Shown: positions 18,465-45,663, counted from the stretch's first letter. The stretch: DNA of 64,000 nucleotides from Candidatus Pacebacteria bacterium CG2_30_36_39 (GCA_001873435.1 MNZB01000002.1:65620-129619), one strand, 5' to 3'. A program made the numbers and translations. The notes: generated by a model not told the origin, from the letters alone.

Positions 18465-21400
18465 GTGAAGAGTTTATTTCGCAAGTTTAATCAAAAGTTT
18501 TTTTCTATTTTCTATATTTTTCTCATTTTTGTTCAAAATCTTTTTCCTCTTTCTATTCTTTTTGCTTCTCCCGCTTATGCTCAGGAGAGTCAGGTAAATA
18601 TTGATGTTTCTAGTGTGAAGTTGTTTTTTAATAGTAATACTAATAAGCTTTCTTTTTCTGTTAAGGCTGACCAAAATCTTGATTATGTTATTGAGTATTC
18701 TAATGGAGATATAAATCAGGCTGTACAGAGTATGGCTCAGGTTGCTGATGGTGTTGTTAAGGCTGATGTTTATCTTGGTTCTTGCTCTACTACTGAGTGT
18801 TCTCCCGATGAGTTTTCAAGTGGGAAAATTAGTTTTCCGAGTGTTGGTTATGAGGCAGATTTTTCTTACAAGAATAATCAGCTTTGGTTAATTCATAATG
18901 GTTTAGCTTCTATTGCTAAGGTTTCTGCAGGCGTTACTTATGTTGCTCCTCAAAATGAACAGGTCAAGGTTACATTTATAAAGCTTCCAGCCGAAGCAGG
19001 TTCTTTGTCTATTAGAGAAGTAGAGCTTAGTGAAGAACAGGTTAGTGCTATTGGTGCGGTGAGCAATGTTGCTTATGACATTTCTTCTTCTATGGAGAAT
19101 GGTAGTTTTGCTTATGATCTTAAGTTGCCTGTTCCTGAGGGTGCAAATGATAATGCTCAAGTTGTTTATACAGAGGATTTAAATGATCTTAATGTGTCTA
19201 GTGTTGAGGAGTCTGTTGTGGATAATGAGGTTAGTGTGGATGGGTTGGATCATTTTACGGTTTTTGTTGTTGTTTATAACTCTACTCCAAGCGTTACTCC
19301 TGAGACTAGTTATCCAAGTCTTGGTTTTCAAGCAACTCAAACAAGTGAATTTGGTGATTATGTTCATTTGGCTGGAACTGCACGTTTATTACAAAAGATA
19401 ACTGTGACTATGGTTACTTGGGCAAAATTTTCAGATTATACTAGCGATCCTAGGTACAATAGCAGTAATTGGATTCATCCAATTACTGTAAATGTTTATA
19501 GTTCTCATTTGGATGAAAATGGTATTCCTGATGAACTTTTAGTCACAACTACGAAATCAGTTACAATTCCATGGAGACCGGCTGCTGACCCATTTTGTTC
19601 TGACAGTAGATGGAAAGATTCAAATGGTGTTTGTAACAATGGTTTTGCATTCAATGCAGAGTTTGATTTGAGTGGATTAAATGTAATCTTGCCTGATGAT
19701 GTAATAGTTGGAATTGCATATGATACACAAAGCTATGGTGTTTCTCCAATTGGAGTTGATGGGCCTTACAACTCTCTTAATGTAGCTGTTCCTAATAATC
19801 AATCTGTTAATGTCGGAAGTGATGATAATGTGAATGAATTATTTTGGAATACTTCTACAAAATCTTGGTATACAGACGGTGGAGCTGCAGGATATAAAGT
19901 TTTTCGTAAAGATGATAATTGGAGTCCAAACGGAACAGTTTCTTTTAAAATTGAAACATTAGGTGATAATACTGCGCCAAAAATAGTTGTTACATCCCCA
20001 ATAGATGAATCTTATGCAGGTGTTCCTACTACTATTAGCGGTACTGTTAGTGATTTAGAAACAGGTGTTGCTTCTGTGTCAATGCATTTATATAACAAAA
20101 ATACAAATACATTGATTCCTGGGTGTACTAGCTTATCAGCAACAATTGATGGTGGAAATTGGTCCTTAAATATTAATAATGGTGGAACATGTAATGTTTC
20201 AGATGGTTACTATGAAGTTGCTGCTTGGGCTTATGATAATGCAGGTAATCCAGGATGGGCATCACGCACACAATTTAAAATTGATAGTACTGCTCCATCT
20301 AAACCAACTGGATTAAAATTTTTAAATTCAGATGGCAAATATTATCAATGTGGAGATATTTCAAAAAGACAAGTTTCTGTTCCAATGTGGGATGATAATA
20401 CAGAGAGTGATTTTGACCACTACGAGTATTCGTCTTTTCATCCAACCGGAGCACAAGGTTTAAATGAAACTATTTTATATGTTCCAAAATTACAAAATTC
20501 TTGGATGCCGCCAACTGACGGAGCTTATGGTTTTTCAGTTAGGTCAGTTGATAAAGCTGGAAATAAATCAGATTGGTCATTAACTGGAGAAACTTTAGAT
20601 GGAAGTTGTAAAATAATTTATGATTCCACTTCTCCAGAAATTTCCATAGACTTAATTAAATATCCCAATGGCACTACAAAAACGGTATTTGTAACAAACT
20701 ACAACACACCAGTCATATTAGGTAGTCTAATAAGTCCTGACATTGACTCCGTAGTACTAAATGTAAATGGACATGATTACGCCGCAAACATTAGTAGTGG
20801 CTGGGAAGCTACTATTAGTGATGTATTAGCAGATGGTGAATACACCATGACAGTTATTGCAACTGACAAAGCTGGGAATAGTAAGTCATTTGAACAAAAA
20901 ATCTTAATCGATACAAAAGCACCAACTGCAAAACACACCTACTACAAAGACACTAAAGAAATCACTGATCCAATAGCCTATGGCCAGTTTGTAAATCAAT
21001 TCAGCTTTACTGGTAACTATGAAGATAGTGATCCATCATCAGGTCTTTATTGGGATTCATTTGTAATCTTCCAAGCACAGGATAACGGCACCTTTGCCTT
21101 TAGCAATAATGGTAAAAAATCCTATTGTGGCTGGAGAAAAAATCCCAACCTAGTAAATCTATCTGGAACAAATTTTGTTCTTGAAACACCAAGATCTTTT
21201 TCTGAATGTACCTCAGAATTACCAGATGGTGAATACTACCTGGCACATCATATTTATGACAGTGCCACTAGAAAAGATATCCCATCTATAAACCAATTTA
21301 GAGATGTCTTGGGATTACACTTTGTAATAGACACCGTTAAGCCAACTAGTGCCATAACCTCATATGAACTTGAAGATGGCGGATCAGTAGAAACAACCAC

Positions 21401-22154
21401 TTTCAACGGCCTCATAGAAGGTACTGCAGCAGATACAGGATCTGGAATAGACCATGTCTTATTATCTATAAAACATGAACCATTCAATGATCCTGCCAGC
21501 ACCATGTATTGGAATGGCAGTAATTGGGTAGGTACATTGGTAACCTTCAAAGCTGAAGGCACAAATACTTGGAACTATCAGCTTCCAGAGACTCCAGAGG
21601 GTATTTATACAATCTCCTCTCATGCAGTAGACAAAGCAGGTAACACTGAAGACACCTATACCATCAAAGTAGTCTTTGATAAAACAATCCCCGAAGTTAC
21701 CGTGAACATAGATCCCAATCCTGCTGACGGAGATAACGGTTGGTATAGAACATTGCCAACTCTAAAATTATCTGCAACAGACAACTATGAACTGGGCAAA
21801 ATCGAATATCGTTGGAACAACAACTCATGGTCCACATATTCAGCTGCCATTGCACCTCCAACAGAAGGACAAAACATCCTTTACTACAGAGGCACCGATA
21901 AAGTTGGCAATGTCACCGAAACAGGAATTAAAGAAGTTAAGTATGACAAAACATCTCCAATAGACAGCGCTCTAAACATTAAGGTTGAAAATATCACTCT
22001 AGACTCAGCTATTGGCAAATGGGAAAAACCAACCAATAACTCTGATATTACCAGATATGTTCTCTCATGGAGACATGAATCAGGTGATAGCAGCGGAGTT
22101 GAAGTAGGTGCAGACGTCTTTAAACAAGAAATGAAAAATCTTTATAACGGATAA
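18465..22154 (+). CDS. giant secreted surface protein with tandem bacterial Ig-like domains (N-terminal 1229-aa part, ends at in-frame TAA)
   Basis: GTG start. Signal peptide (FLIFVQNLFPLSILFASPAYAQE). Recurrent domain-terminal DxAGN motifs (YDNAGNPGW, VDKAGNKSD, TDKAGNSKS, VDKAGNTED, TDKVGNVTE). Confidence 0.7.
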   Translation: MKSLFRKFNQKFFSIFYIFLIFVQNLFPLSILFASPAYAQESQVNIDVSSVKLFFNSNTNKLSFSVKADQNLDYVIEYSNGDINQAVQSMAQVADGVVKADVYLGSCSTTECSPDEFSSGKISFPSVGYEADFSYKNNQLWLIHNGLASIAKVSAGVTYVAPQNEQVKVTFIKLPAEAGSLSIREVELSEEQVSAIGAVSNVAYDISSSMENGSFAYDLKLPVPEGANDNAQVVYTEDLNDLNVSSVEESVVDNEVSVDGLDHFTVFVVVYNSTPSVTPETSYPSLGFQATQTSEFGDYVHLAGTARLLQKITVTMVTWAKFSDYTSDPRYNSSNWIHPITVNVYSSHLDENGIPDELLVTTTKSVTIPWRPAADPFCSDSRWKDSNGVCNNGFAFNAEFDLSGLNVILPDDVIVGIAYDTQSYGVSPIGVDGPYNSLNVAVPNNQSVNVGSDDNVNELFWNTSTKSWYTDGGAAGYKVFRKDDNWSPNGTVSFKIETLGDNTAPKIVVTSPIDESYAGVPTTISGTVSDLETGVASVSMHLYNKNTNTLIPGCTSLSATIDGGNWSLNINNGGTCNVSDGYYEVAAWAYDNAGNPGWASRTQFKIDSTAPSKPTGLKFLNSDGKYYQCGDISKRQVSVPMWDDNTESDFDHYEYSSFHPTGAQGLNETILYVPKLQNSWMPPTDGAYGFSVRSVDKAGNKSDWSLTGETLDGSCKIIYDSTSPEISIDLIKYPNGTTKTVFVTNYNTPVILGSLISPDIDSVVLNVNGHDYAANISSGWEATISDVLADGEYTMTVIATDKAGNSKSFEQKILIDTKAPTAKHTYYKDTKEITDPIAYGQFVNQFSFTGNYEDSDPSSGLYWDSFVIFQAQDNGTFAFSNNGKKSYCGWRKNPNLVNLSGTNFVLETPRSFSECTSELPDGEYYLAHHIYDSATRKDIPSINQFRDVLGLHFVIDTVKPTSAITSYELEDGGSVETTTFNGLIEGTAADTGSGIDHVLLSIKHEPFNDPASTMYWNGSNWVGTLVTFKAEGTNTWNYQLPETPEGIYTISSHAVDKAGNTEDTYTIKVVFDKTIPEVTVNIDPNPADGDNGWYRTLPTLKLSATDNYELGKIEYRWNNNSWSTYSAAIAPPTEGQNILYYRGTDKVGNVTETGIKEVKYDKTSPIDSALNIKVENITLDSAIGKWEKPTNNSDITRYVLSWRHESGDSSGVEVGADVFKQEMKNLYNG

Positions 22155-27639: not shown

Positions 27640-28173
27640 TTATTTGTTTTTTCCAATCACTACTTTTGGAGAGAATGTTATTTTTTGTCTTATTTGACCC
27701 TCATGAGTTTCTTTTGGACAAATTTTTATATCAAAGGATTTTTTAAAAACAAGATTGCATATTTCAAAATGATCTCTTAATTCTGAACAAACATTTTCGT
27801 ATTCTATTACTCCATTGATGAAATTATGTAAAACTTCATTTCTTTTATTCCAATAGTTTTTTATTTTTCTTGATTCACTTGTGGTGAATATTTCAACTTG
27901 CCTTGTATAGTTAGCTAGTTCTATAACATCCTTTTCTTTTTTTAGAATTTTTCTTATTTTATTTTTCTTAGTTTTTTGTTGCTCAAGATACATTTCAATG
28001 GTTATTGATAAATAGTATTTAAGAATATTAATAGATAGAGATAGTGCTTCTATGCAGTAACCATTTTTACGTGCTTTATTAAATTTTTCTACAGTCTCCC
28101 AAGCTTTAGGAAATCTTGAGTTTGAAATTTCTAATCCTTTTACTTCAGTTGGTACAGGTAAGACTTTTATCAT
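27640..28173 (-). CDS. hypothetical protein (very AT-rich)
   Basis: 177-aa ORF. Confidence 0.35.
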   Translation of the reverse strand: MIKVLPVPTEVKGLEISNSRFPKAWETVEKFNKARKNGYCIEALSLSINILKYYLSITIEMYLEQQKTKKNKIRKILKKEKDVIELANYTRQVEIFTTSESRKIKNYWNKRNEVLHNFINGVIEYENVCSELRDHFEICNLVFKKSFDIKICPKETHEGQIRQKITFSPKVVIGKNK

Positions 28174-28891: not shown

Positions 28892-29012
28892 TTCAATCAT
28901 TGGAAGAAGAAAATGGCAATATTGTGACCCTAGTGACGCGTGGTTTGAACCGCTTTTAGCTCATTTTGAGCAACTCCGCCAGATGTACGAGACATCAGAA
29001 CAGGAGGAAAGC

Positions 29013-29454
29013 GATGTTTAAGTCTACCTTATTTGACGAGTCAACTTTCTACAAGCAGTTTACCACGGATTTACTCAAGGCCAAACAAGAAGTAGTGATC
29101 GAGAGTCCATTTATCACTACTAAAAGAATGAATCAGCTAGCACCTATCTTTAGTAAGCTGGTTAGACGTGGAGTTAGAGTCTACGTCATCACCAGAGACC
29201 CTAGAGAACATCGAGAGCCTTACAAAGAGCAGTCGGAGCATGAGATACAGCACTTTGAACAAATTGGGGTGCAGGCGCTAATCTGCCAGGGCAATCATCA
29301 TCGCAAGTTAGCGATAATTGACAGAAAGATTCTTTGGGAAGGCAGTCTTAATATACTATCTCAGATTAAAAGCAGGGAAATTATGCGCCGCTTTGATGGC
29401 GGCGGCTTCGCCGTGGAGATGTTTAATTTTTTGAAACTCGAGAGATTTATATAA
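29013..29454 (+). CDS. PLD-superfamily single-HKD nuclease (Nuc/NucT-like); ORF opens at 28966 but SD-supported start is 29013
   Basis: HKD motif HHRKLAIIDRKILWEGSLN (HxKx4Dx6GSxN). AGGAGGAAAGCG-ATG at 29013. GC clearly higher than surrounding DNA. Confidence 0.7.
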
Positions 29455-29489: not shown

Positions 29490-29699
29490 ATGACAAAACA
29501 ACCAATAGAAGCAGAAATCCAAAAAGTACTTAAGATGCTTGAGGAATCAGATCCAGCTAATGCTACTCGTGAGAATGCTATCAAAGTTATTGAAGGTATG
29601 AAAACAATGGCAAGTGGAGTGATCGACAAGATTGATGATGATCTAAAAACAGGTAAAGTAAAAGTTTCTGATGATGGCAAAGTTACTCGAAAAGGTTAG
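29490..29699 (+). CDS. small hypothetical acidic protein
   Basis: 69-aa ORF with SD AAAGGAAAATATG. Confidence 0.3.
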   Translation: MTKQPIEAEIQKVLKMLEESDPANATRENAIKVIEGMKTMASGVIDKIDDDLKTGKVKVSDDGKVTRKG

Positions 29700-29906
29700 T
29701 TAAAAAGGTAAGACTTCAGACGATTTAATTCCAAGAGCTTTGACTATTTTCTCTAGTGCTTCGTAAGAAGGATTTTCTCCACCACGCTCAATACGAGCAT
29801 AGTAGTTAACATGCATCTTGGCTTTATCAGCTATCTGTTGCTGGGTTAGTCCAGTCTTGTTACGAGCTGACTTAATGTTTTGGCCGAATTGTTGTTGTGA
29901 TCCCAT
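29700..29906 (-). CDS. XRE-family helix-turn-helix transcriptional regulator
   Basis: 68 aa. GQNIKSARNKTGLTQQQIADKAKMHVNYYARIERG is a classic Cro/CI HTH. Start 6 nt after the TIR gene stop. Confidence 0.8.
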   Translation of the reverse strand: MGSQQQFGQNIKSARNKTGLTQQQIADKAKMHVNYYARIERGGENPSYEALEKIVKALGIKSSEVLPF

Positions 29907-29912
29907 ATTTAT

Positions 29913-30401
29913 TTACCTGCCTGCATTAGCTGCAGCTATTTCTATCCAGTTTCCCATGTTATTGTATCCATCATCATTTACCCAATCATAAGTTTTGTAT
30001 AGTTCTGCAAAATATATCTTTTTGCCATCTCTAGTTATATACCAGTCTGAAAAAGGATTTCTTCCTTTACTAGTAGTGTTTCCTTCTCGATCTTTTTTAT
30101 TATGTATGTAGATTCCGAGTAAACCATTTTTTTTGCCATGACTGCTTTTTATCTCATAATCAATCCACTTTCTCCCTGATGTATTTTCTCCAATTAATAC
30201 TACAGTTACTGAGGTGCCAGATAATTGGCCATCAATCCATTTCTTTATATCAGCATCATCTTTCTTTTTAACCTCTTCCCATTCAGCTGAATCAAAAAAG
30301 CCGGCAGCTTTCCTATCTTGAGTAACCCAGCTATTTCTTACTTGTGAAGCTCTCCAGTTATCCTGCTTGTAATGAAAGCTGAAAAATGTTTTTCTTGTCA
30401 T
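29913..30401 (-). CDS. TIR-like domain protein (DUF1863 / Thoeris ThsB-like)
   Basis: 162 aa. N-terminal FFSFHYKQD...VRNSWVT, central TSVTVVLIGENTSGRKWIDYEI, C-terminal YKTYDWVNDDGY. This pattern closely resembles MTH538/ThsB-type TIR proteins. Confidence 0.68.
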   Translation of the reverse strand: MTRKTFFSFHYKQDNWRASQVRNSWVTQDRKAAGFFDSAEWEEVKKKDDADIKKWIDGQLSGTSVTVVLIGENTSGRKWIDYEIKSSHGKKNGLLGIYIHNKKDREGNTTSKGRNPFSDWYITRDGKKIYFAELYKTYDWVNDDGYNNMGNWIEIAAANAGR

Positions 30402-30405
30402 CTGC

Positions 30406-30882
30406 TTACTCCTTAATTATATCAATAATATTGTTTGAATTTTGCTCGTCACAATCTATATAAAACTGAATTTTCGTGGTATTAATTTTGAGAGTCAGTG
30501 TCACAAATAACATCATTATTAGCAATGATCCATAAAAAGGAGTGAGAGTTTTTGAAAATATCGAGCGAATCCATGTATTTTTTCCTTTTTTATGTTTTCT
30601 GTAGTCCATTGAAAAATCAATATCTTTATCCTTCTGTTTTCTAACAAAGTTGTATAAATCACGATAACATCGTTCAATTGAAAGGAAAAACCCATCTAGT
30701 AGCCAAAAAACTAAAATTAAGAAAAAAGAAAACAATATGTAAATACCCTCTTCATTATTAGAAGCAACTGTCAATAATCCTATTATGAGAGTGATAGTCC
30801 AACCTTTTAAAATAAACAAGTTACCACTCATTCGTGTAATGATGGTTTGGATCATTTTGAGATGTTCAACTTTTTTATCCAT
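30406..30882 (-). CDS. small 3-TM membrane protein translationally coupled to the TIR gene (candidate membrane effector)
   Basis: 158 aa. Hydrophobic helices at ~27-40, 47-62 and 115-130. Its last codons contain the GGAG for the TIR gene (AAGGAGTAAgcagATG). Confidence 0.5.
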   Translation of the reverse strand: MDKKVEHLKMIQTIITRMSGNLFILKGWTITLIIGLLTVASNNEEGIYILFSFFLILVFWLLDGFFLSIERCYRDLYNFVRKQKDKDIDFSMDYRKHKKGKNTWIRSIFSKTLTPFYGSLLIMMLFVTLTLKINTTKIQFYIDCDEQNSNNIIDIIKE

Positions 30883-30911
30883 ATGCTTATTATATCAACT
30901 AATTTTTCCTT

Positions 30912-31514
30912 TTATTTTCCAAGAAATGTCCTTGGATTCACTGGTATCCCATATACTCTGGCTTCAAGGTGTAGATGTGGCCCTGTTGACCAGCCAGTAG
31001 AGCCCATCTTGCCGATTTCATCCTCGACCTTTACCTCTTGCCCTTCAAAGACATAGATCTTATCTAAATGGCCATAAAGTGAGGTGATTTTATCCCCGTG
31101 GTCAATGATGATGTGCTTGCCATATCCCCAGAAGATCTCACCAGCATAGACTACCTTGCCCTGCATCAAAGGAGAGATGGGAGTCCCTAAGTTGTTGGCA
31201 ATATCAATTCCAGTATGAAAAACTTGATAACCACTTGATTGAGCAAATTCTAATGTAATGACCCCTAGTACTGGCCAGGCAATCGTGTGATCTACCTCGC
31301 TCACTACTTCTCCTGTGGTGGGGTCTAGGATCTGGATATTCTTAGTTTCACTATCTACTCCCACGAGTGCATCTGACACAACATTAATACCGGTGTGAGC
31401 CAGGATAAACACAGCAATCACTGGCAACATGATGACTACGAGAAAGGCGATTAAAACGAATTTAAACTCTTTCCTAAAAGAAAATATTGCTGCTACTTGG
31501 GCATAGATGTTCAT
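30912..31514 (-). CDS. M23 family metallopeptidase (LytM-like cell-wall hydrolase), membrane anchored
   Basis: HTGIDIA (HxxxD) and GSTGWSTGPHLHLE (HxH) motifs. N-terminal TM helix. Position distal in the T4SS operon. Confidence 0.85.
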   Translation of the reverse strand: MNIYAQVAAIFSFRKEFKFVLIAFLVVIMLPVIAVFILAHTGINVVSDALVGVDSETKNIQILDPTTGEVVSEVDHTIAWPVLGVITLEFAQSSGYQVFHTGIDIANNLGTPISPLMQGKVVYAGEIFWGYGKHIIIDHGDKITSLYGHLDKIYVFEGQEVKVEDEIGKMGSTGWSTGPHLHLEARVYGIPVNPRTFLGK

Positions 31515-36278: not shown

Positions 36279-38249
36279 CTACTCATATCTTAGAGCATTA
36301 AGTGCCGAGATCTTGGTAGCTCGTTTAGCTGGGAAGTAACCAGTGGCAATACCCACTAGCATTGATAGAAATAACACTGCGATCACGAAAATTGGTGGAA
36401 CGTAAGAAATATCTACAAACCCGACTCCCTTTACAATCGATAAGGCGGATAAGACGACGCTGAGTACCTTACCCACCAAAAGCCCCAAAACTAGTCCTAA
36501 AATCCCACCGTACAACCCCATTATCATGGATTCTGTGAGAAACAATGACTTAACTTCATCAGATTTCATGCCCATCGCTTTCATTAAGCCCACTTCACGT
36601 GTTCTCTCAAGTAGTGAGACAGTTAGAGTGTTAAACATCCCCAGTGCCGCTACCGATAAAGCCACCATTCCTAGAATAGAAAGTATTAATCTAAAATTAG
36701 CAAATAAGCTGTCAATTTGAGCTACTGTATCGGCAACGGATACAGTACCATAGCCTGCCGATTCGATTGTGCTTCTAACTTTGATCAAGTTGCTTTTGTC
36801 ATCCACAATCACTTTGGTTTGAGAAAACTTGTTAACTCCCATGGATCTAACGTCAATAAATGGCACGTAGATAATTGGCGTACCCTCATCTGCTATCACT
36901 CCCACAATGGTGTACTTAAGTGGGGCTGACTCAACTCGTTTACTTGGATCATCCAGGAGTTCTCCTACCACAACCATGGCTAGGTCTAGCTCACGACCAA
37001 TTGCCTCATTCTCCGAGATGTTAAGTAGTTGCAAGACTGATCGGTTAACTACTATTTGCTTTTTTGCCTCACTATTTATATCTACTTTTTCGATGTCTTG
37101 CTCATTTGCACTAGCTGATTCACTGGCAATCTCTACGACCGGCAAGCTCCCGTCAGTCTCATCAGTACTTACTCCCAACACTTGGCTCACAATTTCCCTG
37201 GGAGTAGCGGTCATGGATATTTCTGCTACAAACCCCTCTGCTTGAGTCTGAGTGTTGTCTTCCTCTCTTACAACCATGTACTCACCATCCTCGCAGTCGC
37301 CACTTTCTTCTATGTTGCAGGGAGTCTTATCCCACAGCAAATATGTTGACTTGACCCACTTGCCTAGTGGGACACCGCCCGCAGTTTCTCCAGCTTGACC
37401 TGCCTCACCATTGGACTCAAAATTCTCTCCCCAAACTTCAACTCCATCAGTATTACCTTCAATTCGCTTGGTATAGCCAATAATTGGGGAATCTGTACTT
37501 GGCTCTTCTCTCACCTTGAGAAACACTCCTTGTGTAATCGAGATTTCAACATCTCCAATTTCCTCACCCACCTCACGCGTCACAGAAGAAACACCCAAAA
37601 CCGGTGGCATATTAGTAGTATCAAAGGCGGTAGTATTGCTCTCAAATAAGTTGCCCTTAACAGGTTGTAAGGCAGAATACTTGAGGTAATCAGCGGTAGC
37701 ACCATAGACGGCAATATCGGAGACAGAGTTTTGATAAGACACTCTCCCTACAACTGCAATCAGGGGTAGGACGTCGGTAACATTGGTAATTTGTTTAAAC
37801 TTGGCAAGAGTGGCATCAGTCAAACTCAAGTCTGCTGACAGTCCAGGTACTACCTCGGCCTGCTTGAGCTCATCTAGTCTTGCCACACGTGAGATTACTA
37901 GCTGTTGCAAGCCATACCCAATCGACACTAAAAACACGATGAATGATATTCCAATTGCCATTCCTCCAATGGTAACAATTGTGCGAGTTTTCTTGGCCGC
38001 CATGTTTTTAAATGAAATCTCAATCAAGTACAAGCGAGAAACACCGCTCTTATCAGCCTTATCAAGCGACTTTACCCAGCTGTCAAATTTCTCTGAGACA
38101 GATCTTAACACGCGATTTTTTTGACCAAGCCTGTTTAGCAGTAAGGTAAACGAATACAAAATAGTCAATATAACAAAACTACTGATCTCATAAGTAGATC
38201 GCCAGAGGGTTTTTAGAATTGGTTTTTTGTTTCTTTTAAGTGTTTTCAT
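36279..38249 (-). CDS. ABC transporter permease, FtsX/MacB family with large extracytoplasmic domain
   Basis: 656 aa. N-terminal TM, ~400-aa periplasmic domain, C-terminal FtsX-type 3-TM bundle (LERTREVGLMKAMGMKSDEV). Confidence 0.75.
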   Translation of the reverse strand: MKTLKRNKKPILKTLWRSTYEISSFVILTILYSFTLLLNRLGQKNRVLRSVSEKFDSWVKSLDKADKSGVSRLYLIEISFKNMAAKKTRTIVTIGGMAIGISFIVFLVSIGYGLQQLVISRVARLDELKQAEVVPGLSADLSLTDATLAKFKQITNVTDVLPLIAVVGRVSYQNSVSDIAVYGATADYLKYSALQPVKGNLFESNTTAFDTTNMPPVLGVSSVTREVGEEIGDVEISITQGVFLKVREEPSTDSPIIGYTKRIEGNTDGVEVWGENFESNGEAGQAGETAGGVPLGKWVKSTYLLWDKTPCNIEESGDCEDGEYMVVREEDNTQTQAEGFVAEISMTATPREIVSQVLGVSTDETDGSLPVVEIASESASANEQDIEKVDINSEAKKQIVVNRSVLQLLNISENEAIGRELDLAMVVVGELLDDPSKRVESAPLKYTIVGVIADEGTPIIYVPFIDVRSMGVNKFSQTKVIVDDKSNLIKVRSTIESAGYGTVSVADTVAQIDSLFANFRLILSILGMVALSVAALGMFNTLTVSLLERTREVGLMKAMGMKSDEVKSLFLTESMIMGLYGGILGLVLGLLVGKVLSVVLSALSIVKGVGFVDISYVPPIFVIAVLFLSMLVGIATGYFPAKRATKISALNALRYE

Positions 38250-39031
38250 GATTTTTCTGTCTCGCTATTGGTAGGATTGATTGAGGACATAAGTTTTTTA
38301 AACCCACCGATTTTCCCTGCTAACTCATGACTCTTTGCTTGTCCCACAATTTTACCGTCAAACATAATTAGAGAGCGAGAGGCAAATGTCATGTACTCCA
38401 AGTCATGCGTAACCATGATAATAGTTCTACCCTCGTGATTGAGTCTCTGGAGTAACTCCATTAGCTCTTGGCCGGATTTGAAGTCTAGGTTGCCGGTTGG
38501 TTCATCAGCAATGATAATCTTGGGGCTAGTGACTACCGCGCGAGCCAAGGCTATTTTTTGTTGTTGACCACTTGATAGCTCGGTAGGGATGTAGTCCTGC
38601 CAGTTATCCATGCCTACCATTTTTAACACCTCAGACGCTTTCTTTTTGGCCTCATCATGGAGCTCACCATTGATTCGCAGGGCAAACATAATGTTTTCCA
38701 ACACAGTCAGAGCTTTGATCCAGTTGGGTTGCTGGTAAACCATCCCGACATCGTTTTTGCGAATCTCGGTTCGCTCATCCTCATTTAACCCTTGATAGAG
38801 TTGCTGTCCCAAAAACTCCACACTGCCAGTGGTTGGAGGCTCTAGTCCGAGTAAGATATGCAGTAGGGTTGACTTGCCACAACCTGATGGGCCCGTGATA
38901 ATGATAAACTCTCCGCTTGCGACTTGCAGATTGATCTCTTTGAGTACTGGTACTTTGGTAGATCTAACCTCGAAGGTCTTATTCAGATCTTTGACTGTGA
39001 TGACAGTTTGGGAGGAGTTTGCTTGATTCAT
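38246..39031 (-). CDS. ABC transporter ATP-binding protein (MacB/LolD-like)
   Basis: Walker A GPSGCGKST, signature LSGGQQQKIALARA, Walker B IIIADEPTGNLD. Start overlaps the target-gene stop. Confidence 0.9.
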   Translation of the reverse strand: MNQANSSQTVITVKDLNKTFEVRSTKVPVLKEINLQVASGEFIIITGPSGCGKSTLLHILLGLEPPTTGSVEFLGQQLYQGLNEDERTEIRKNDVGMVYQQPNWIKALTVLENIMFALRINGELHDEAKKKASEVLKMVGMDNWQDYIPTELSSGQQQKIALARAVVTSPKIIIADEPTGNLDFKSGQELMELLQRLNHEGRTIIMVTHDLEYMTFASRSLIMFDGKIVGQAKSHELAGKIGGFKKLMSSINPTNSETEKS

Positions 39032-39033
39032 AG

Positions 39034-42000
39034 TTATTTTGGTATGACTCCTGTCACAAAGCCAAATGCTTCGGACAAATTCTTAATGACCAGATCAAGG
39101 GCAGAACGAGTAGCCTTAGGGGCGATGGTGACCAAATCAATGCTTTGTGTATTATTACCGGTGCCGTCCTGAGAGATCGCTCGTAAGTGATAAACTTGGC
39201 TTGGCACGAGGCCTGACAAAATAACCGTGTGATTGTTGGTGAGATTGCCGTCATATTGGGACTTTTGAGAATAGGTATTGCCTGATCCCTGACCAAATTC
39301 AACTTGACTACTAGCTGGCTCATCTGTATCCCAGGTGACAATTAGTTGTGCCTTAACATCCCCGGCAGCAAACCAAACCGGCGGGATAGTGCCACCAATA
39401 ACTTTGAGATTAAGAATTTGAGGCGGTCTGGTATCGGTGGCAGTGGTGAAGCGCTGAATATCACTGGTTGCCTCGTTACCTAGTTTATCCCTACCCTTGA
39501 CCACCAAGAAGTACTTGGTTTGAGCCGCAAGGTTACGAATTATCATTGAATGAGCACCTTTTTCTAAGAGTACCTTGACTTCGTCCCGTGCTTCTCCAGC
39601 ATTGTTTTCTGGGTAGTAGGTCACAATCGAAGAGACCTCTGTATTGGTGCTCCAGGTCACGCGGATGGTAGTTTGAGCTGCATTAGCCACAGTTTCCAGG
39701 CGAACTCCCGAGATTTTGGGTCGGGGCAGGGTGGTGAAGTCGTTAATCTGATTATCGTATTCATAGTTATCGCTATCAAAAGTATTGATCTTATAGTAGT
39801 ACTTAGTCCCATCATCCAACTCTGCTAGCTGAGTAGTGTAGGTCGTCTCACTGGTTGAGGTAGAGACTTCTTTGACTGCCCCAAAATTAGTGGTCTTGCC
39901 GTAATAAATCTTGACTTTGGAGGCTCCCTTGACTGTGTATTGGATGATTCCTGAGGTGAGTCCCACGTTTTCGGCTGAGACATCAAATACAGTTGGGGCA
40001 GCCTGAGTGGTAAAACTGTTCTCGTCTGATTCTCCAGTGTTTCCATCTTCATCCGTCCACTTAGCCTTGTAATAGTAAGTAGTGCCAGCAGTTAGGCCAG
40101 TCAGATTGATCTCGTGGTCGGTAACTTGGCTAGAGCTACTTGGCTCCTCAGTGTTATACGAACCACTACTTGTGCCGTAAGCTACTTTGGAGTCAGCACT
40201 CCTGCTTGTACTCCAACTAATCTTGGCTTTTTTGGTGGTAATGCCTGACTCCGAAGGCTCAGAGGATAGAGTTGGAGCAGTGGTGTAGCGTCCGGTAGGA
40301 GTAATGGTGACGGCATTGGTGCCACTACTGGTCGCATTGGCGCCGTCTTTGGTGTAGATCTTGTAATAGTACTGGGCAGATTCAGGAGTGTTGTCTACAT
40401 ATGACAGGCCGCTAGTTGTCCCCACTTGAGAGAAAGTGGTGCCATCAGCTGAGCGATATACCAGATAGGTCAAGTTGCCTGCCCCTTGGTAGCTAGGTGC
40501 AGTCCAGGTCAGAGTGGCATACCACTTGGACTCAGATTTGATTGATGAGTCGGAGGCCACCAAATTACTGACATTATCAGGGTCAGTCGAGTTGAGGGTA
40601 AAAGTACCCGAGATATAGTTACTGGGGCTATAGTTATCCGCATCATCGACCGCTACCACGTAGACCGTATTACTCCCCTTATTTACCCCTGGTAGAGCCG
40701 TAGCATCCACGGTGATTGCCGTCCCGTTATCAATATATGTAGCGGCATTGCCAGTTATGGTTGAGAGTGTCGAGGGAGGAGCGACGTTGACCATGTAGTA
40801 GTAATTAGTTACACTCTGGCCTAATGTTGCAGTGGCCTCAGGCCAGCTCAGAGCAAAAGAGTTGGCCGTCGAAGAACTAGGAGCAACAGTAATAGTATCA
40901 CTCCCGCCAAAGGTTGGTGCAGCCCCGCCATACTCCAAACTACAGGTGCGAATACTAGCATCAGCGCTGACGTTTCCGGCTGCATCAACGCTACGAAAAT
41001 AGACAATGTTACTGCCGGTGGCGATACCGCTTCCGTCTTGCGCGTCAGTCAGGGTGCGGGATGTTTCTGAAGTGGGAATATAGTTATTAATTCCCAACAC
41101 TGACTCAGTTGTAGTTCCAAGCCAAGTGCCACCCGTGGTATTGATCTGATACTGCCAGCCCAAAGTCCCGGCGTTATCATCAACTGTCGCGGTTGCGCCA
41201 CTAGTAGGCCAGGAGAAGTTCATGTCCGCCACATTGGCAAAGCTCCCACCCGGACAAGAGACGTAGGAAACATTGGTAGGTGGGGTATTATCAAATCTAA
41301 ATTGGAATTGTTCACTTGCTCCAGTGAACACGTTTTCAGCGTTATCAATTGCTTTAATATTAAGATAATACGGATCACTGCCAGTAGTTAACCAAGTGCT
41401 ACCTCGATAGCTAGTGGTGGCAAAATCAATGCTGGTACCAGCCACGATAAACTGACAAGTCGAGCCGGCGGTAGATACCGGCGAGGTACCAAGCAAGCCT
41501 TTACTAGTGGCCGGATCTCCGTCAGGGTCAGTCCCCAAATATAAACAGTAGCCTTTGAGTCCCACCCCACCTGCATTATCAGCGCCAGCCGTCCAGCTAT
41601 AATACGGGGCAATATTATTTGTCCAGTCGTTACTGCTCATGCTAGTACCACCATTAGTTCTAGTCATCGCGATGGCCGAGGCATTAGTGTCAGGTGCCGC
41701 AGTATCAGTAGTGAGCCCAATACTCAGGTTGGTTATTGAAGGCGTATCCGCCCCACCAAAGCCCATAATGGCTTTAATTGAGATTTTTTGGGAAGTTACA
41801 GACAAGGCTTGCATAGCAGATTGAGTCAGCTCGGCGGCTGTGTTGACATGGGTAGTAGTGTTACTAGCTGTTGCCCATGCTCCACCATCCCAATAATTCC
41901 AACTCCCACCTGACTCACAAGTGGAGCCGTCATCTAGGCAGAGCTGGTAGACCACACTGGCGTTGCCGCTAGCCGTCACTCCGTCATCGCTACAGGTACT

Positions 42001-43614
42001 CCCCGTGAGAGTGCCCTCACAAAAGCTGTCCCATGAGGAAACGGAAGAATTGGAATAAGCCAGAGTCGTGTAGACACTGTAGGTGCCGTTTTGGGACAAG
42101 GTAAAGTCGTCTAAAATAACAGTCTTGCCTGACTTTACTAACACACCATAATTGCGGGATTCAGCAGCTCCCGTGACTTGACCCGCAAGTTTCCACCAGC
42201 CAGATCCCTGATCAGTGTAGGTAGTGGTGACAGTTGAGCCGTTGTAATAAAGCTGGGCAATCGAGGATGAGACAGTTCCTCCCTCACTCCCACTGGTGTT
42301 GTCATAGACATAAGCCGAAAGATCGTAAGTTGAGGTGTCACCGACGTTGACTGATTGGGTAACTTTAGCGTCAGAAATAGACCCCACCAAAATTTGGTCG
42401 CCGCCGGTCGCTTCGCGACCAAGAGAAGAGGAGAAAGAGGAAGAGAGGTCTACGGGATCACTGGCGCAGCGAAAGCCAAGAGCGCTGTACTGACCGCCTG
42501 GCGCATTACCCAGATTCAAAGCGAATGCCCCGGCGCTGGCCGTAAGACTCCAATTACCGCCGCGGCGGAAGGCATTGTTCAATGCCCCACCATAAACTTG
42601 ACCCATGCCGTGAGCTGATAGATAGCCACTAGCTGGCCCATATAGGTCAATAGCGCCCGCTGCTATATTGGCATGGTTCCAGTCTAACCAGCCGACAGTA
42701 GTATTAATTGCTTCTGTTTGCACATCACTATTCCAGTCCCAGACGTTGCCAGACATATCCCAAATCTCGGTGCCGTTACTAAGGGTTAGCTTGGCTTTAG
42801 TGTCTCGGCCTGTACCGTATTCTGGATCAGCGCCGTTGTAACCAACACTCGTGGTTTCACCCACATTACCTCGGAACATTCCACCACCCGCAGCTACAGT
42901 GGAGCCTACTGTGCCGTCTGCCCAGTTAGAGGCTTGGGACTCGGCATTTCTAGCAATGGTCATCCACTCAGTGTTAGAGATGAGATGATAGCCAGATGGA
43001 CAAGCTGAGAGTGCCTGGGTTTGAGTGATGTGCACAATTGGCGCACCGTTTGCTGAAGAGACCACCTTGGCAGTATCAAAGCTAGCAATGTCACGATAGT
43101 CTAGTCCAGAGCCTGAGTCAGCAGGAGCGCTACAGGTGGCAGCCGTATCACCGTCTCCGTCTGCTGTACAGTCATACTTGGCTTCATAGGCCATCGCTAA
43201 GAAGGCTTTGTCATCTCCACCCGTCATAAAGGTGCTGTTACCTGGTACGGGGATATATCCAGCAGGGGTAGTCGAGCCGGCAATAGGGGTGATCGACCAA
43301 GAGGAGTTGTCGGCAGAAAAATCAGGGTTAGTGAACTTGTTAACTCCAGAGACTGGATGAGCTCCAGAACCATCTACTGCCACCAGATTACTATCATAAG
43401 TGTAGTTAGCCGCCTCCCCGGTACTAAACGTCCAGTTTTTGCTAGTGTCATTGAGGGCAAATACATTGGGGAAGACCTCGAATAGTGCTAAATAGATACC
43501 AGTTACAAGACCAATAGAAGAAATCAGGACAGTAAACGCATTAAGCTGAAAGCGGGACAAATGCCATCTTGGGGAGAAGAAGTAGAGCTTGAGTTTGTGT
43601 AGTAAAGTCTTCAT
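39034..43614 (-). CDS. DGR target (variable) protein: N-terminal signal/anchor, FGE-sulfatase-type C-type-lectin fold carrying the VR, then Ser-rich linker and >1100 aa of FN3/Ig-like repeats
   Basis: 1526 aa. FGE-type motifs GYHLISNTEW, GNVWDW, RGGNW, GFRCASD. The VR at 42466..42562 matches the TR near the reverse transcriptase. FN3-like repeats (ISWSTSRSADSKVAYGTS...YYYKAKWTDEDGN). Confidence 0.8.
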   Translation of the reverse strand: MKTLLHKLKLYFFSPRWHLSRFQLNAFTVLISSIGLVTGIYLALFEVFPNVFALNDTSKNWTFSTGEAANYTYDSNLVAVDGSGAHPVSGVNKFTNPDFSADNSSWSITPIAGSTTPAGYIPVPGNSTFMTGGDDKAFLAMAYEAKYDCTADGDGDTAATCSAPADSGSGLDYRDIASFDTAKVVSSANGAPIVHITQTQALSACPSGYHLISNTEWMTIARNAESQASNWADGTVGSTVAAGGGMFRGNVGETTSVGYNGADPEYGTGRDTKAKLTLSNGTEIWDMSGNVWDWNSDVQTEAINTTVGWLDWNHANIAAGAIDLYGPASGYLSAHGMGQVYGGALNNAFRRGGNWSLTASAGAFALNLGNAPGGQYSALGFRCASDPVDLSSSFSSSLGREATGGDQILVGSISDAKVTQSVNVGDTSTYDLSAYVYDNTSGSEGGTVSSSIAQLYYNGSTVTTTYTDQGSGWWKLAGQVTGAAESRNYGVLVKSGKTVILDDFTLSQNGTYSVYTTLAYSNSSVSSWDSFCEGTLTGSTCSDDGVTASGNASVVYQLCLDDGSTCESGGSWNYWDGGAWATASNTTTHVNTAAELTQSAMQALSVTSQKISIKAIMGFGGADTPSITNLSIGLTTDTAAPDTNASAIAMTRTNGGTSMSSNDWTNNIAPYYSWTAGADNAGGVGLKGYCLYLGTDPDGDPATSKGLLGTSPVSTAGSTCQFIVAGTSIDFATTSYRGSTWLTTGSDPYYLNIKAIDNAENVFTGASEQFQFRFDNTPPTNVSYVSCPGGSFANVADMNFSWPTSGATATVDDNAGTLGWQYQINTTGGTWLGTTTESVLGINNYIPTSETSRTLTDAQDGSGIATGSNIVYFRSVDAAGNVSADASIRTCSLEYGGAAPTFGGSDTITVAPSSSTANSFALSWPEATATLGQSVTNYYYMVNVAPPSTLSTITGNAATYIDNGTAITVDATALPGVNKGSNTVYVVAVDDADNYSPSNYISGTFTLNSTDPDNVSNLVASDSSIKSESKWYATLTWTAPSYQGAGNLTYLVYRSADGTTFSQVGTTSGLSYVDNTPESAQYYYKIYTKDGANATSSGTNAVTITPTGRYTTAPTLSSEPSESGITTKKAKISWSTSRSADSKVAYGTSSGSYNTEEPSSSSQVTDHEINLTGLTAGTTYYYKAKWTDEDGNTGESDENSFTTQAAPTVFDVSAENVGLTSGIIQYTVKGASKVKIYYGKTTNFGAVKEVSTSTSETTYTTQLAELDDGTKYYYKINTFDSDNYEYDNQINDFTTLPRPKISGVRLETVANAAQTTIRVTWSTNTEVSSIVTYYPENNAGEARDEVKVLLEKGAHSMIIRNLAAQTKYFLVVKGRDKLGNEATSDIQRFTTATDTRPPQILNLKVIGGTIPPVWFAAGDVKAQLIVTWDTDEPASSQVEFGQGSGNTYSQKSQYDGNLTNNHTVILSGLVPSQVYHLRAISQDGTGNNTQSIDLVTIAPKATRSALDLVIKNLSEAFGFVTGVIPK
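42466..42562 (-). repeat. DGR variable repeat (VR) core; homology to TR extends 42456..42574
   Basis: 119-bp match to 45888..46006. 13 of 14 core mismatches have T in TR versus G/C/A in VR on the plus strand, i.e. A on the coding minus strand. Confidence 0.72.
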
Positions 43615-44462
43615 GTTAGTTGTTTCTTTTTTGAGGGAGGCAAGTAATTAGCTTTAGTTGACACTTTCTTACCACTTTTCTCTTCAAGCTCTTGTTTGGC
43701 GTTCCCAGCAATCTTACCACCTTCTTTGGCGGCTTGTTTGTTTTGGGAAAACCCTCGAGCATCTTTATTTTTAGCAATTTCGGTAGTAGAGGCCTCCCCC
43801 AGCATGGAGAAGATTAACTCCAGATCATTCATATGATCTCGCAAGTTCTCACGCTCAAGTCCTTTGAATTTTTTGTATTCTGAGGGAGTCATCCCAAAGG
43901 TAGCCTTGGAGATTTCTGCTGTTAGGATTGCATACTCGCGGTCTTGACCAACATTTCTCTTTTTCCATTCGTCTGTCAGAGTCTCGCGGATTTCTATTCC
44001 GCGCATGCGTTTCTCAATCCAAGAATCAGGATATCCTTTAGCCTTATATATGGCTCTAGTGCGTTTTGTGGCTAACTCTGGGTCTTCTATCTCTTGTACT
44101 CGTTCATAACCGACTTTGGCTAGCCAACGCTTGAAAGGTTCTGCTTTGGGAGAAGGGATAGACTGGATAAGTCTAAATATTCCCTCTGTATTCCAACAAT
44201 AAGCCTTTTGCCTACCACCTGGAGTTTCGATTTCTAGCATAAGGGGTGGTACAAATTGTACCCCCCCCTCATCGGTCAACTTAGCTAACTCCACATCTCT
44301 TGTTTTAAGTCTTTTGAAGTATTGGGATGGGTCTCTTGAATCTGTCAAAGATTGGATAACGTCGTTTATCACAAACCACCACTCATTATTGTGAATGGTT
44401 TTCCTTACTTTTTTGCCCTTAAATATGGCAATTTTAGTAGTAATTGTTTCTGGTTTTTTCAT
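43611..44462 (-). CDS. Bro-N domain protein (phage antirepressor-like)
   Basis: N-terminal IAIFKGKKVRKTIHNNEWWFVINDVIQSL resembles the Bro-N DNA-binding domain. 283 aa. Stop overlaps the target-gene start (ATGA). Confidence 0.55.
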   Translation of the reverse strand: MKKPETITTKIAIFKGKKVRKTIHNNEWWFVINDVIQSLTDSRDPSQYFKRLKTRDVELAKLTDEGGVQFVPPLMLEIETPGGRQKAYCWNTEGIFRLIQSIPSPKAEPFKRWLAKVGYERVQEIEDPELATKRTRAIYKAKGYPDSWIEKRMRGIEIRETLTDEWKKRNVGQDREYAILTAEISKATFGMTPSEYKKFKGLERENLRDHMNDLELIFSMLGEASTTEIAKNKDARGFSQNKQAAKEGGKIAGNAKQELEEKSGKKVSTKANYLPPSKKKQLT

Positions 44463-44565: not shown

Positions 44566-45663
44566 TTACTCAAATAAGCTCTTCATTAGTCCACGAGAGT
44601 CAGCGTGAGTTAAATGACCGATGATTGCGGCTTTGCTTGCCTCAAGTTCTTGAGTAGAGATAGTTTCATTTTTAAGTTGTTTCTTTTTCTTTCGCCAATT
44701 TCTCTCCATTCTAAGTAGAGTATTTCCACGAATCAAAATGTGATCATAAAAAACCCGGTAACCCACAAAGGGCACACCATTTTTGACGTCTTTGATATTA
44801 AGCTTCTTAGGGTGAAGGGACAAAGCCAAATTGTCTTTTAGATAAACATCTATCGTAGTTATTAGTTCTTTGAGGTACTCCTTGTCAGGATGAATGACGT
44901 AAAAATCATCCATATATCTGCCGTACCACTTGAGTTTTAACCTGTCCTTCATAAAATGATCAAGCTCATTAAGATAGATATTAGCAAATAACTGACTAGT
45001 TAAGTTGCCAATTGGTAATCCCACTCTTTTTTGAGTATTTATGCCAGGCGGTTGATAAGTACTGTTATTTGTAAAAAGAGTAAGTTGTTCTTTTGGGACT
45101 GAAGAGTTGCGATGATTGCTGGTGTGAGTAACAATAATTTTTTTAATCAAGGATCTTGTCTCTTCGCACTTGATAGTACGATTGATAATCGCGAGCAATT
45201 TATCCCAAGAAATACTCTGAAAAAACTTACTAATATCGCACTGCAGAGCATAAATCGGCGTATCTTTGCCATAAACACATCTAGCTGCCATGAGAAACTT
45301 TTTGAGTCTTTTAGCACCAAGGTGTGTTCCTTTTTCAATTCGACAAGCGTAAGCGTCATAAATGAACTGTTTTTCAAATAATGGCTGGATCTGTGCAACT
45401 AGCGAGTGTTGAACTACTCTGTCTCGAAAAGCAGGAGCAGCGATATTTCTTGCCTTTGGCTCATGCACTACGAAGTATGTATAAGCCTGGGGAGTGTATC
45501 GGTGGCGTGATAGCTCCCAACTGAGTCTATTGACATTTTCTTCCAAAAAGAAAGAAAAGACACACACTTTTCTCTTGTAGTGATTATCTAGTTGAGCTTT
45601 TTTGAAAGCATTATGTAAGTTTTGTAAGTTATATATTTTGTTAAACATGCTAATAAACGACAA
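44566..45663 (-). CDS. DGR-type reverse transcriptase
   Basis: 365 aa. RT motifs incl. LPIGNLTSQLFANIYLNELD and YGRYMDDFYV (YMDD). Compact size without maturase/endonuclease domains. TR immediately upstream. Confidence 0.85.
   Translation of the reverse strand: MSFISMFNKIYNLQNLHNAFKKAQLDNHYKRKVCVFSFFLEENVNRLSWELSRHRYTPQAYTYFVVHEPKARNIAAPAFRDRVVQHSLVAQIQPLFEKQFIYDAYACRIEKGTHLGAKRLKKFLMAARCVYGKDTPIYALQCDISKFFQSISWDKLLAIINRTIKCEETRSLIKKIIVTHTSNHRNSSVPKEQLTLFTNNSTYQPPGINTQKRVGLPIGNLTSQLFANIYLNELDHFMKDRLKLKWYGRYMDDFYVIHPDKEYLKELITTIDVYLKDNLALSLHPKKLNIKDVKNGVPFVGYRVFYDHILIRGNTLLRMERNWRKKKKQLKNETISTQELEASKAAIIGHLTHADSRGLMKSLFE

Follow-up and report, generated by a model that had tools for sequence, protein, structure and literature searches.

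Three minus-strand genes in the 64,000-nucleotide stretch of Candidatus Pacebacteria DNA analysed here (the window) very probably constitute a type V Thoeris anti-phage system in the order thsF–thsB, followed by a lineage-specific XRE gene. Thoeris types V–XI were defined by Yirmiya et al. (bioRxiv, December 2025; 10.64898/2025.12.03.692087), with type V comprising a TIR protein (ThsB) and ThsF, a small protein with three membrane helices. Phage defence by type V was validated in the same study for the systems of Bacillus thuringiensis DAR 81934 and Bacillus sp. 1NLA3E, and it is only in such homologues that the signalling has been followed by experiment: both type V ThsBs tested made 3'cADPR upon phage infection, the TIR protein doing so on its own; 3'cADPR was toxic to cells carrying the B. 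thuringiensis system; and the Tad1 sponge blocked type V defence (10.64898/2025.12.03.692087). According to AlphaFold3 modelling, ThsF would assemble into a homo-oligomeric ring with pockets of positive charge between protomers (10.64898/2025.12.03.692087). For the window locus, the evidence obtained consists of protein homology for ThsF and ThsB alike, the arrangement of their genes in an operon and the catalytic residue of the TIR domain.

The first-pass annotation had described a candidate Thoeris-like or novel TIR module and had taken the pairing of a TIR protein with a bare small membrane protein for a different architecture. That interpretation holds in part: the locus appears to be a Thoeris-type signalling module with the membrane protein as its likely effector, but the architecture is not new, since the same pairing is already described as type V Thoeris (ThsB and ThsF), validated in two Bacillus systems, and the window membrane protein is 39% identical to ThsF. 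No new class is therefore needed.

Gene organization of the locus

The genes are tightly packed on the minus strand and are transcribed in the order thsF, thsB, XRE. Their features, in the direction of transcription, are:

30889..30898, minus strand: TTGATATAAT, a TGnTATAAT-type extended −10-like motif, possible promoter of thsF itself (inferred)
30406..30882, minus strand: thsF, probable 158-aa three-TM effector of type V Thoeris (PADLOC PDC-M50A), from homology, AF2 modelling and hydropathy
30409..30414, minus strand: AAGGAG Shine-Dalgarno sequence for thsB, within the final thsF codons, read from the sequence
29913..30401, minus strand: thsB, 162-aa TIR-domain protein, predicted phage sensor and signal synthase with catalytic Glu E83, from PF08937, PADLOC and PDB matches
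29700..29906, minus strand: XRE/Cro-type HTH gene, 68 aa, lineage-specific add-on and probable transcriptional regulator, from HTH_3 and PADLOC matches

At this level the first-pass annotation was accurate. All three of its ORFs are present on the minus strand, and the Shine-Dalgarno sequence it had placed in the final codons of the TM gene is found there: the thsF/thsB junction reads ...ATT AAG GAG TAA GCAG ATG, with GCAG as a 4-nt spacer, so that the AAGGAG of thsB lies inside the last thsF codons. The XRE ATG follows the thsB stop after 6 nt, the spacing previously given.

A 29-nt spacer separates thsF from an M23 peptidase gene on the same strand. This spacer contains TTGATATAAT, which is invariant in the window and in the related loci L001, L002 (where the flanks have diverged) and L008; in the window, L001 and L008 it sits 6 nt before the thsF ATG. 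The motif was not called by a consensus promoter scan because it has no −35 element. Its conservation suggests a promoter belonging to thsF; at 6 nt from the ATG such a promoter would possibly give a leaderless or near-leaderless thsF mRNA.

Relationship to the validated ThsF

The validated ThsF was located from the exact B. thuringiensis ThsB (Table S1 of the type V study), recovered as P0298 with 100% identity. The sole gene downstream of this ThsB is a 141-aa ORF, whose position fits the consecutive IMG gene ids of TIR and effector in Table S2. A B. cereus plasmid match (H1) was rejected as a reference, since it has a ThsB homologue but no intact ThsF ORF. In BLASTP the window ThsF and the B. 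thuringiensis ThsF share 39% identity over 132 aa (E = 1e-35), and the B. thuringiensis protein matches both the PADLOC model PDC-M50A (E = 1.8e-48) and an HMM built from relatives of the window protein (E = 8.6e-56). This three-way match identifies the window pair as type V Thoeris.

The resemblance extends to the pairing of one TIR gene with one gene for a standalone three-TM membrane effector of about 140 aa, to ThsF homology along the whole conserved length, and to the setting as cargo of a defence island or mobile element. The two systems differ in that the effector gene comes first here, whereas the TIR gene is first in B. thuringiensis; the window ThsB is of the short, 162-aa PF08937/DUF1863 type, whereas that of B. 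thuringiensis has 252 aa with an N-terminal extension; the window ThsF has at its C terminus some 25 additional residues, an acidic tail modelled with low confidence; an XRE gene is co-transcribed here; and the host is a CPR bacterium in which the module ends a type IV secretion system (T4SS) cluster.

Both adjacent window proteins also match, at full length, the component HMM sets A and B of PADLOC PDC-M50. That name is a bioinformatic candidate label only, which type V Thoeris now covers; the PDC series consists of untested “phage defence candidates” derived from guilt-by-embedding (Payne et al., 10.1101/2024.01.29.577857). Literature searches for “PDC-M50” and “8xMP” by name returned nothing useful.

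ThsB and the identity of the signal

Assignment of the 162-aa protein to the ThsB/DUF1863-type TIR domains, proposed earlier from sequence motifs, was upheld by profile searches. The protein covers positions 1–100 of the 100 in Pfam PF08937, ThsB_TIR (E = 1.2e-27), and matches the PADLOC models PDLC00431 for ThsB (E = 5e-69) and PDC-M50B (E = 2.8e-64) as well as the structures of B. cereus ThsB (PDB 6LHY/9B7D; E = 1.2e-36). Its core is identical to that of B. cereus MSX-D12 ThsB at 49 of 101 residues (49%). The catalytic-pocket glutamate, for which the first-pass annotation had proposed a check, is kept as E83 in the motif WIDYEI and aligns with E85 of B. cereus ThsB. The B. cereus protein is the 3'cADPR synthase of type I Thoeris. 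To that system the window locus is related through its very similar TIR, with the same catalytic Glu and probably the same signal; it differs in having no SIR2-SLOG ThsA and in an effector that would act on the membrane rather than by NAD+ depletion. TIR proteins bearing the same motifs as the window ThsB (VRNSWVT, TSVTVVLIGE) are labelled “DUF2270 - Type V” in Table S1 (10.64898/2025.12.03.692087). From the likeness to B. cereus ThsB and these labels, 3'cADPR is the most likely signal to be made by the window ThsB.

The same architecture might instead operate with another ADPR derivative, such as 2'cADPR, canonical cADPR or a conjugate, to which ThsF would be tuned. This is rather unlikely, though it carries some weight. 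In the Bacillus sp. 1NLA3E type V system 3'cADPR did not induce toxicity, which leaves room for ThsF variants with different activating ligands, and TIR clusters are common to Thoeris types that use different signals (10.64898/2025.12.03.692087); the window ThsF is itself only 39% identical to the validated protein. Activation of ThsF by 3'cADPR was demonstrated with the 252-aa ThsB type of B. thuringiensis, and the window ThsB is of the short type. Against a different signal stand the 49% identity of the window TIR to a 3'cADPR synthase and the production of 3'cADPR by both of the type V ThsBs tested (10.64898/2025.12.03.692087).

The ThsF membrane protein

The description of the TIR partner as a bare small three-TM protein fits both the hydropathy profile and the structural model. 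Three hydrophobic segments span residues ~25–44, 50–68 and 113–134; the loop at 69–112 is strongly basic (13 K/R vs 6 D/E) and the C-terminal tail is acidic, a distribution that suggests an N-in/C-out topology. An AF2 monomer model built with 23 homologues (mean pLDDT 82) has three long helices at residues 3–43, 47–82 and 113–157. Foldseek comparison of this model with the PDB gave non-specific helical-bundle matches alone (best E = 0.63).

The 158-aa protein has no significant match in Pfam or NCBIfam, and NCBIfam holds no model for it or for the window ThsB; it does match PDC-M50A of PADLOC-DB over its full length (E = 1.9e-46). The statement that the locus has no SIR2, SLOG or Macro sensor agrees with the domain scans, in which neither SIR2 nor SLOG was found in any scanned ORF from 26.2 kb to 45.7 kb and the Pfam search gave no Macro match in the TM protein or its neighbours. 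SLATT was likewise absent from the Pfam matches of the window protein and from the top families among 77 relatives.

Invariant or near-invariant residues in these 77 relatives fall in two regions, the N-terminal amphipathic helix with the start of TM1 (K4, H7, Q12, R17, K26, G27, W28) and the end of TM2 with its cytoplasmic extension (F59, W60, D63, E70, R71, R74, Y77). The conserved residues are predicted to face the cytoplasm, which makes them obvious candidates to line the positively charged pocket in which ThsF is proposed to bind its ligand, and the basic residues on the cytoplasmic helices are compatible, in a model of the monomer only, with pockets between protomers. R17, K26, D63, E70, R71, R74 and Y77 offer concrete targets for mutagenesis of the still hypothetical 3'cADPR pocket.

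The ThsF family and the DUF2270 label

Yirmiya et al. referred to ThsF as “DUF2270 (PF10028)” (10.64898/2025.12.03.692087). The window ThsF gave no match to PF10028 at E <= 0.1, and the validated B. thuringiensis ThsF gave none at E <= 1; since the validated protein also misses the profile, DUF2270 is best regarded as a loose label, and the negative result does not signify that the window protein lies outside the family. Weak PF10028 matches were obtained for 15 of 77 ThsF family members (best E = 0.0029), weak DUF3278 matches for 28 and weak 8xMP matches for seven. At best, ThsF is a remote relative of the DUF2270, DUF3278 and 8xMP families, currently without a curated profile. The sub-threshold matches also hint at a superfamily of small oligomeric membrane proteins that has so far escaped recognition. 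As there is no Pfam or NCBIfam model and DUF2270 is not reproducible at Pfam thresholds, annotation pipelines will go on missing ThsF.

The family is large, with 5,570 clusters at 50% identity in a HMMER search of 1.84 billion representatives, 4,019 of them at E <= 1e-10. Nearly all homologues are standalone proteins of 130–170 aa, and fusions to SLOG or 8xMP domains are rare, so the window ThsF is not a truncated fragment of a larger effector; this possibility, which the first-pass annotation had raised against its own reading, was accordingly rejected. Among the rare fusions are a SLOG (LD_cluster2) domain placed N-terminal to the ThsF module and another ThsF joined to an 8xMP domain. In locus L092 (2689–5137), a TIR_2 gene and a 152-aa gene are followed by a gene for a 378-aa SLOG (LD_cluster2)–ThsF fusion that contains the full ThsF module; the TIR_2 gene is two genes upstream of it, and patatin and nSTAND genes lie alongside. 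The presence of a SLOG–ThsF fusion in a TIR operon supports an effector role for ThsF driven by a nucleotide signal.

These fusions bear on a reading in which the roles are reversed and no diffusible signal is involved, the membrane protein sensing envelope perturbation or phage entry and the TIR protein killing by NAD+ depletion. A standalone ThsF without a recognisable ligand-binding domain would suit such an arrangement, as would the activity of TIR domains as NADase effectors in other bacterial systems (10.64898/2025.12.03.692087). We nevertheless consider it highly improbable: the fusions place a nucleotide sensor on the membrane module, and in the homologous system the TIR alone makes 3'cADPR on infection, external 3'cADPR makes cells with the system suffer toxicity and Tad1 blocks defence (10.64898/2025.12.03.692087).

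Linkage of ThsF to TIR genes

Recurrent association of the membrane protein with TIR genes, which the first-pass annotation had offered as a check on its proposal, is found across phyla. One genome per species was scanned with the 23-sequence alignment, and ThsF relatives were present in at least 569 genomes from many phyla. Linkage was counted in the best 80 loci of these genomes, about 24 of which are from Patescibacteria, a ranking biased by the CPR query. A TIR gene is nearby in 72 of the 80 and adjacent in 63, arranged as follows:

TIR gene on the thsF strand at <=150 nt, in most cases directly downstream: 58 of 80 loci
TIR gene elsewhere within the flank: 9 of 80 loci
Adjacent divergent TIR gene, confirmed by Pfam: 5 of 80 loci
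No TIR gene found: 8 of 80 loci, three of them on contigs that end <=600 nt from the TM gene

Plasmids point in the same direction. The B. thuringiensis ThsB matched 124 plasmid records and the window ThsF 126, with near-identical breakdowns by genus and several listed records in common. The pair often occurs in defence islands, where its neighbours include Bsp6I-type restriction–modification (RM) genes, several methyltransferases and restriction enzymes, DruA/NurA/HerA-like genes and OLD/UvrD (Gabija-like) genes.

One locus, L008 (CAYXBZ010000038.1), is binned as “uncultured Pseudomonadales” and encodes a ThsF 93% identical to the window protein, with the TIR gene 7 nt downstream. It is probably a mis-binned CPR contig or the result of a very recent transfer.

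The XRE gene

The 68-aa protein encoded downstream of thsB matches HTH_3 (E = 5e-15); its best PADLOC matches are to “Control_protein” of RM systems (E = 4e-16) and to capH (E = 3e-12), and it is probably a transcriptional regulator. An XRE gene downstream of the TIR gene is confined to the window and to L001, L002 and L093–L095, which are closely related to it. It was therefore rejected as an integral third component and is regarded as an accessory, and the three genes grouped earlier as one module stay together only in the closest relatives. A search of 29600–31100 revealed no inverted repeats suitable as operators for the XRE protein.

Five other loci (L020, L027, L029, L046 and L062), mostly from Patescibacteria or unclassified MAGs, have an XRE-like gene at a fixed distance (~2.1–2.6 kb) upstream of thsF and not 3' of the TIR gene. 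These genes may be control proteins of adjacent RM systems.

The T4SS neighbourhood

Upstream of thsF, on the same strand, are genes for the M23 peptidase, VirB4, a TraC-like protein, a PrgI-like protein, pilins and a MacB-type ABC transporter, together with those for a 1,526-aa surface protein, a Bro-N protein, a reverse transcriptase, a Replic_Relax protein and a VirD4-type coupling protein. The first-pass annotation had placed the three genes at the distal end of the T4SS operon of an integrative and conjugative element (ICE). They do end a conjugative-type T4SS cluster, and the coupling protein, Replic_Relax protein, VirB4 and pilins make an ICE or other conjugative element plausible; no integrase, however, was identified among the neighbouring genes examined. 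Other genes around the locus are:

18465–22154, plus strand: giant surface protein, 1,229 aa, with Big_13/Big_3 Ig-like domains
27640–28173, minus strand: 177-aa ORF with a weak ScaI restriction-endonuclease match (E = 1.6e-4, below the Pfam cut-off)
28966–29454, plus strand: small PLD-family nuclease (PLDc_2, E = 5e-12; PADLOC MkoC/DrmC-like)
29490–29699, plus strand: 69-aa ORF following the PLD gene, convergent with the XRE gene
Within 36279–43614, minus strand: giant surface protein, 1,526 aa, with FGE-sulfatase and Fn3-like domains
43611–44462, minus strand: Bro-N domain protein, adjoining the reverse transcriptase gene inside the T4SS cluster
44566–45663, minus strand: reverse transcriptase, 365 aa (RVT_1, E = 2.4e-18)

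Several of these genes merit separate mention. At 29699/29700 the stop codon of the 69-aa ORF directly adjoins that of the XRE gene, and the L002 copies of these genes share a 29-nt overlap; the PLD gene and the 69-aa ORF may represent a separate small defence or toxin module. The 177-aa ORF lies in a very AT-rich stretch, with 23–29% GC at 27.2–29.0 kb. The reverse transcriptase could belong to a group II intron or a retron, or be a defence-associated RT. The giant surface proteins and the MacB-type ABC transporter are interleaved with T4SS genes.

The base composition of the region revises the claim that the PLD nuclease gene is GC-atypical. At 42.9% GC it resembles the T4SS genes (42–43%), whereas thsF (28%) and thsB (35%) are the low-GC genes in a window with a mean of 38.5%; their GC content below that of the flanks suggests that the pair was acquired later, as cargo. 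The position behind the T4SS genes is kept in relatives whose ThsF is 70–95% identical to the window protein, and the convergent 69-aa and PLD genes are also kept in L001, L002 and L093–L095. The window locus recurs in groundwater metagenome contigs of up to 469 kb.

This setting could mean that the three genes are an XRE-regulated accessory of the T4SS, with a function in entry exclusion, killing of donor or recipient cells, or element addiction, and not an anti-phage system. The genes begin 29 nt after the last gene of the T4SS cluster, on the same strand and in a position kept in relatives, and the cluster holds a coupling protein and a Replic_Relax protein. Outside this lineage, however, ThsF–TIR pairs occur without a T4SS, beside RM, DruA/NurA/HerA-like or OLD/UvrD genes, and the window pair has a GC content distinctly below that of the T4SS genes and its own conserved −10-like motif. 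We therefore regard a T4SS accessory as very unlikely and retain the reading of the pair as type V Thoeris.

Proposed mechanism and implications

The findings on the homologues, together with the sequence features of the window proteins, lead us to propose a model in which ThsB would stay inactive until phage infection, whereupon E83 would convert NAD+ to a cyclic ADP-ribose isomer, most likely 3'cADPR. The signal would then bind a basic cytoplasmic pocket of a ThsF homo-oligomer, formed by the N-terminal helix (K4, H7, Q12, R17, K26) and the helix following TM2 (D63, E70, R71, R74, Y77). Activated ThsF would disrupt the membrane, and the infected cell would stop growing or die before phage release. 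For the window system itself we infer which signal is used, where ThsF binds it, that ThsF oligomerises and that the XRE protein controls transcription of the operon. In the activation of an oligomerising membrane effector by a TIR-made signal that leads to death or arrest of the cell, the model resembles type II (TM-Macro) and type VII (SLATT) Thoeris; unlike the effectors of those types, ThsF yields neither a Macro nor a SLATT domain in Pfam searches. Type II signals through His-ADPR and type VII through canonical cADPR.

In this Pacebacteria lineage the type V module, with its XRE gene, may have become fixed at the 3' end of the T4SS cluster, in which case the T4SS or the mobile element could be coupled to the expression or activation of the module. 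One form of such coupling could be an abortive-infection module borne by the element and derepressed by the XRE protein upon transfer or stress. We hold this extension of the type V reading to be distinctly doubtful.

The locus thus provides a new example of a known system, in a host of the candidate phyla radiation and with an extra regulator gene. The ThsF family is common in genomes of Patescibacteria/CPR, whose defence repertoires are little studied. If the module is coupled to the T4SS or the element, abortive infection based on signalling would be at work in CPR bacteria, which are ultra-small and depend on a host.
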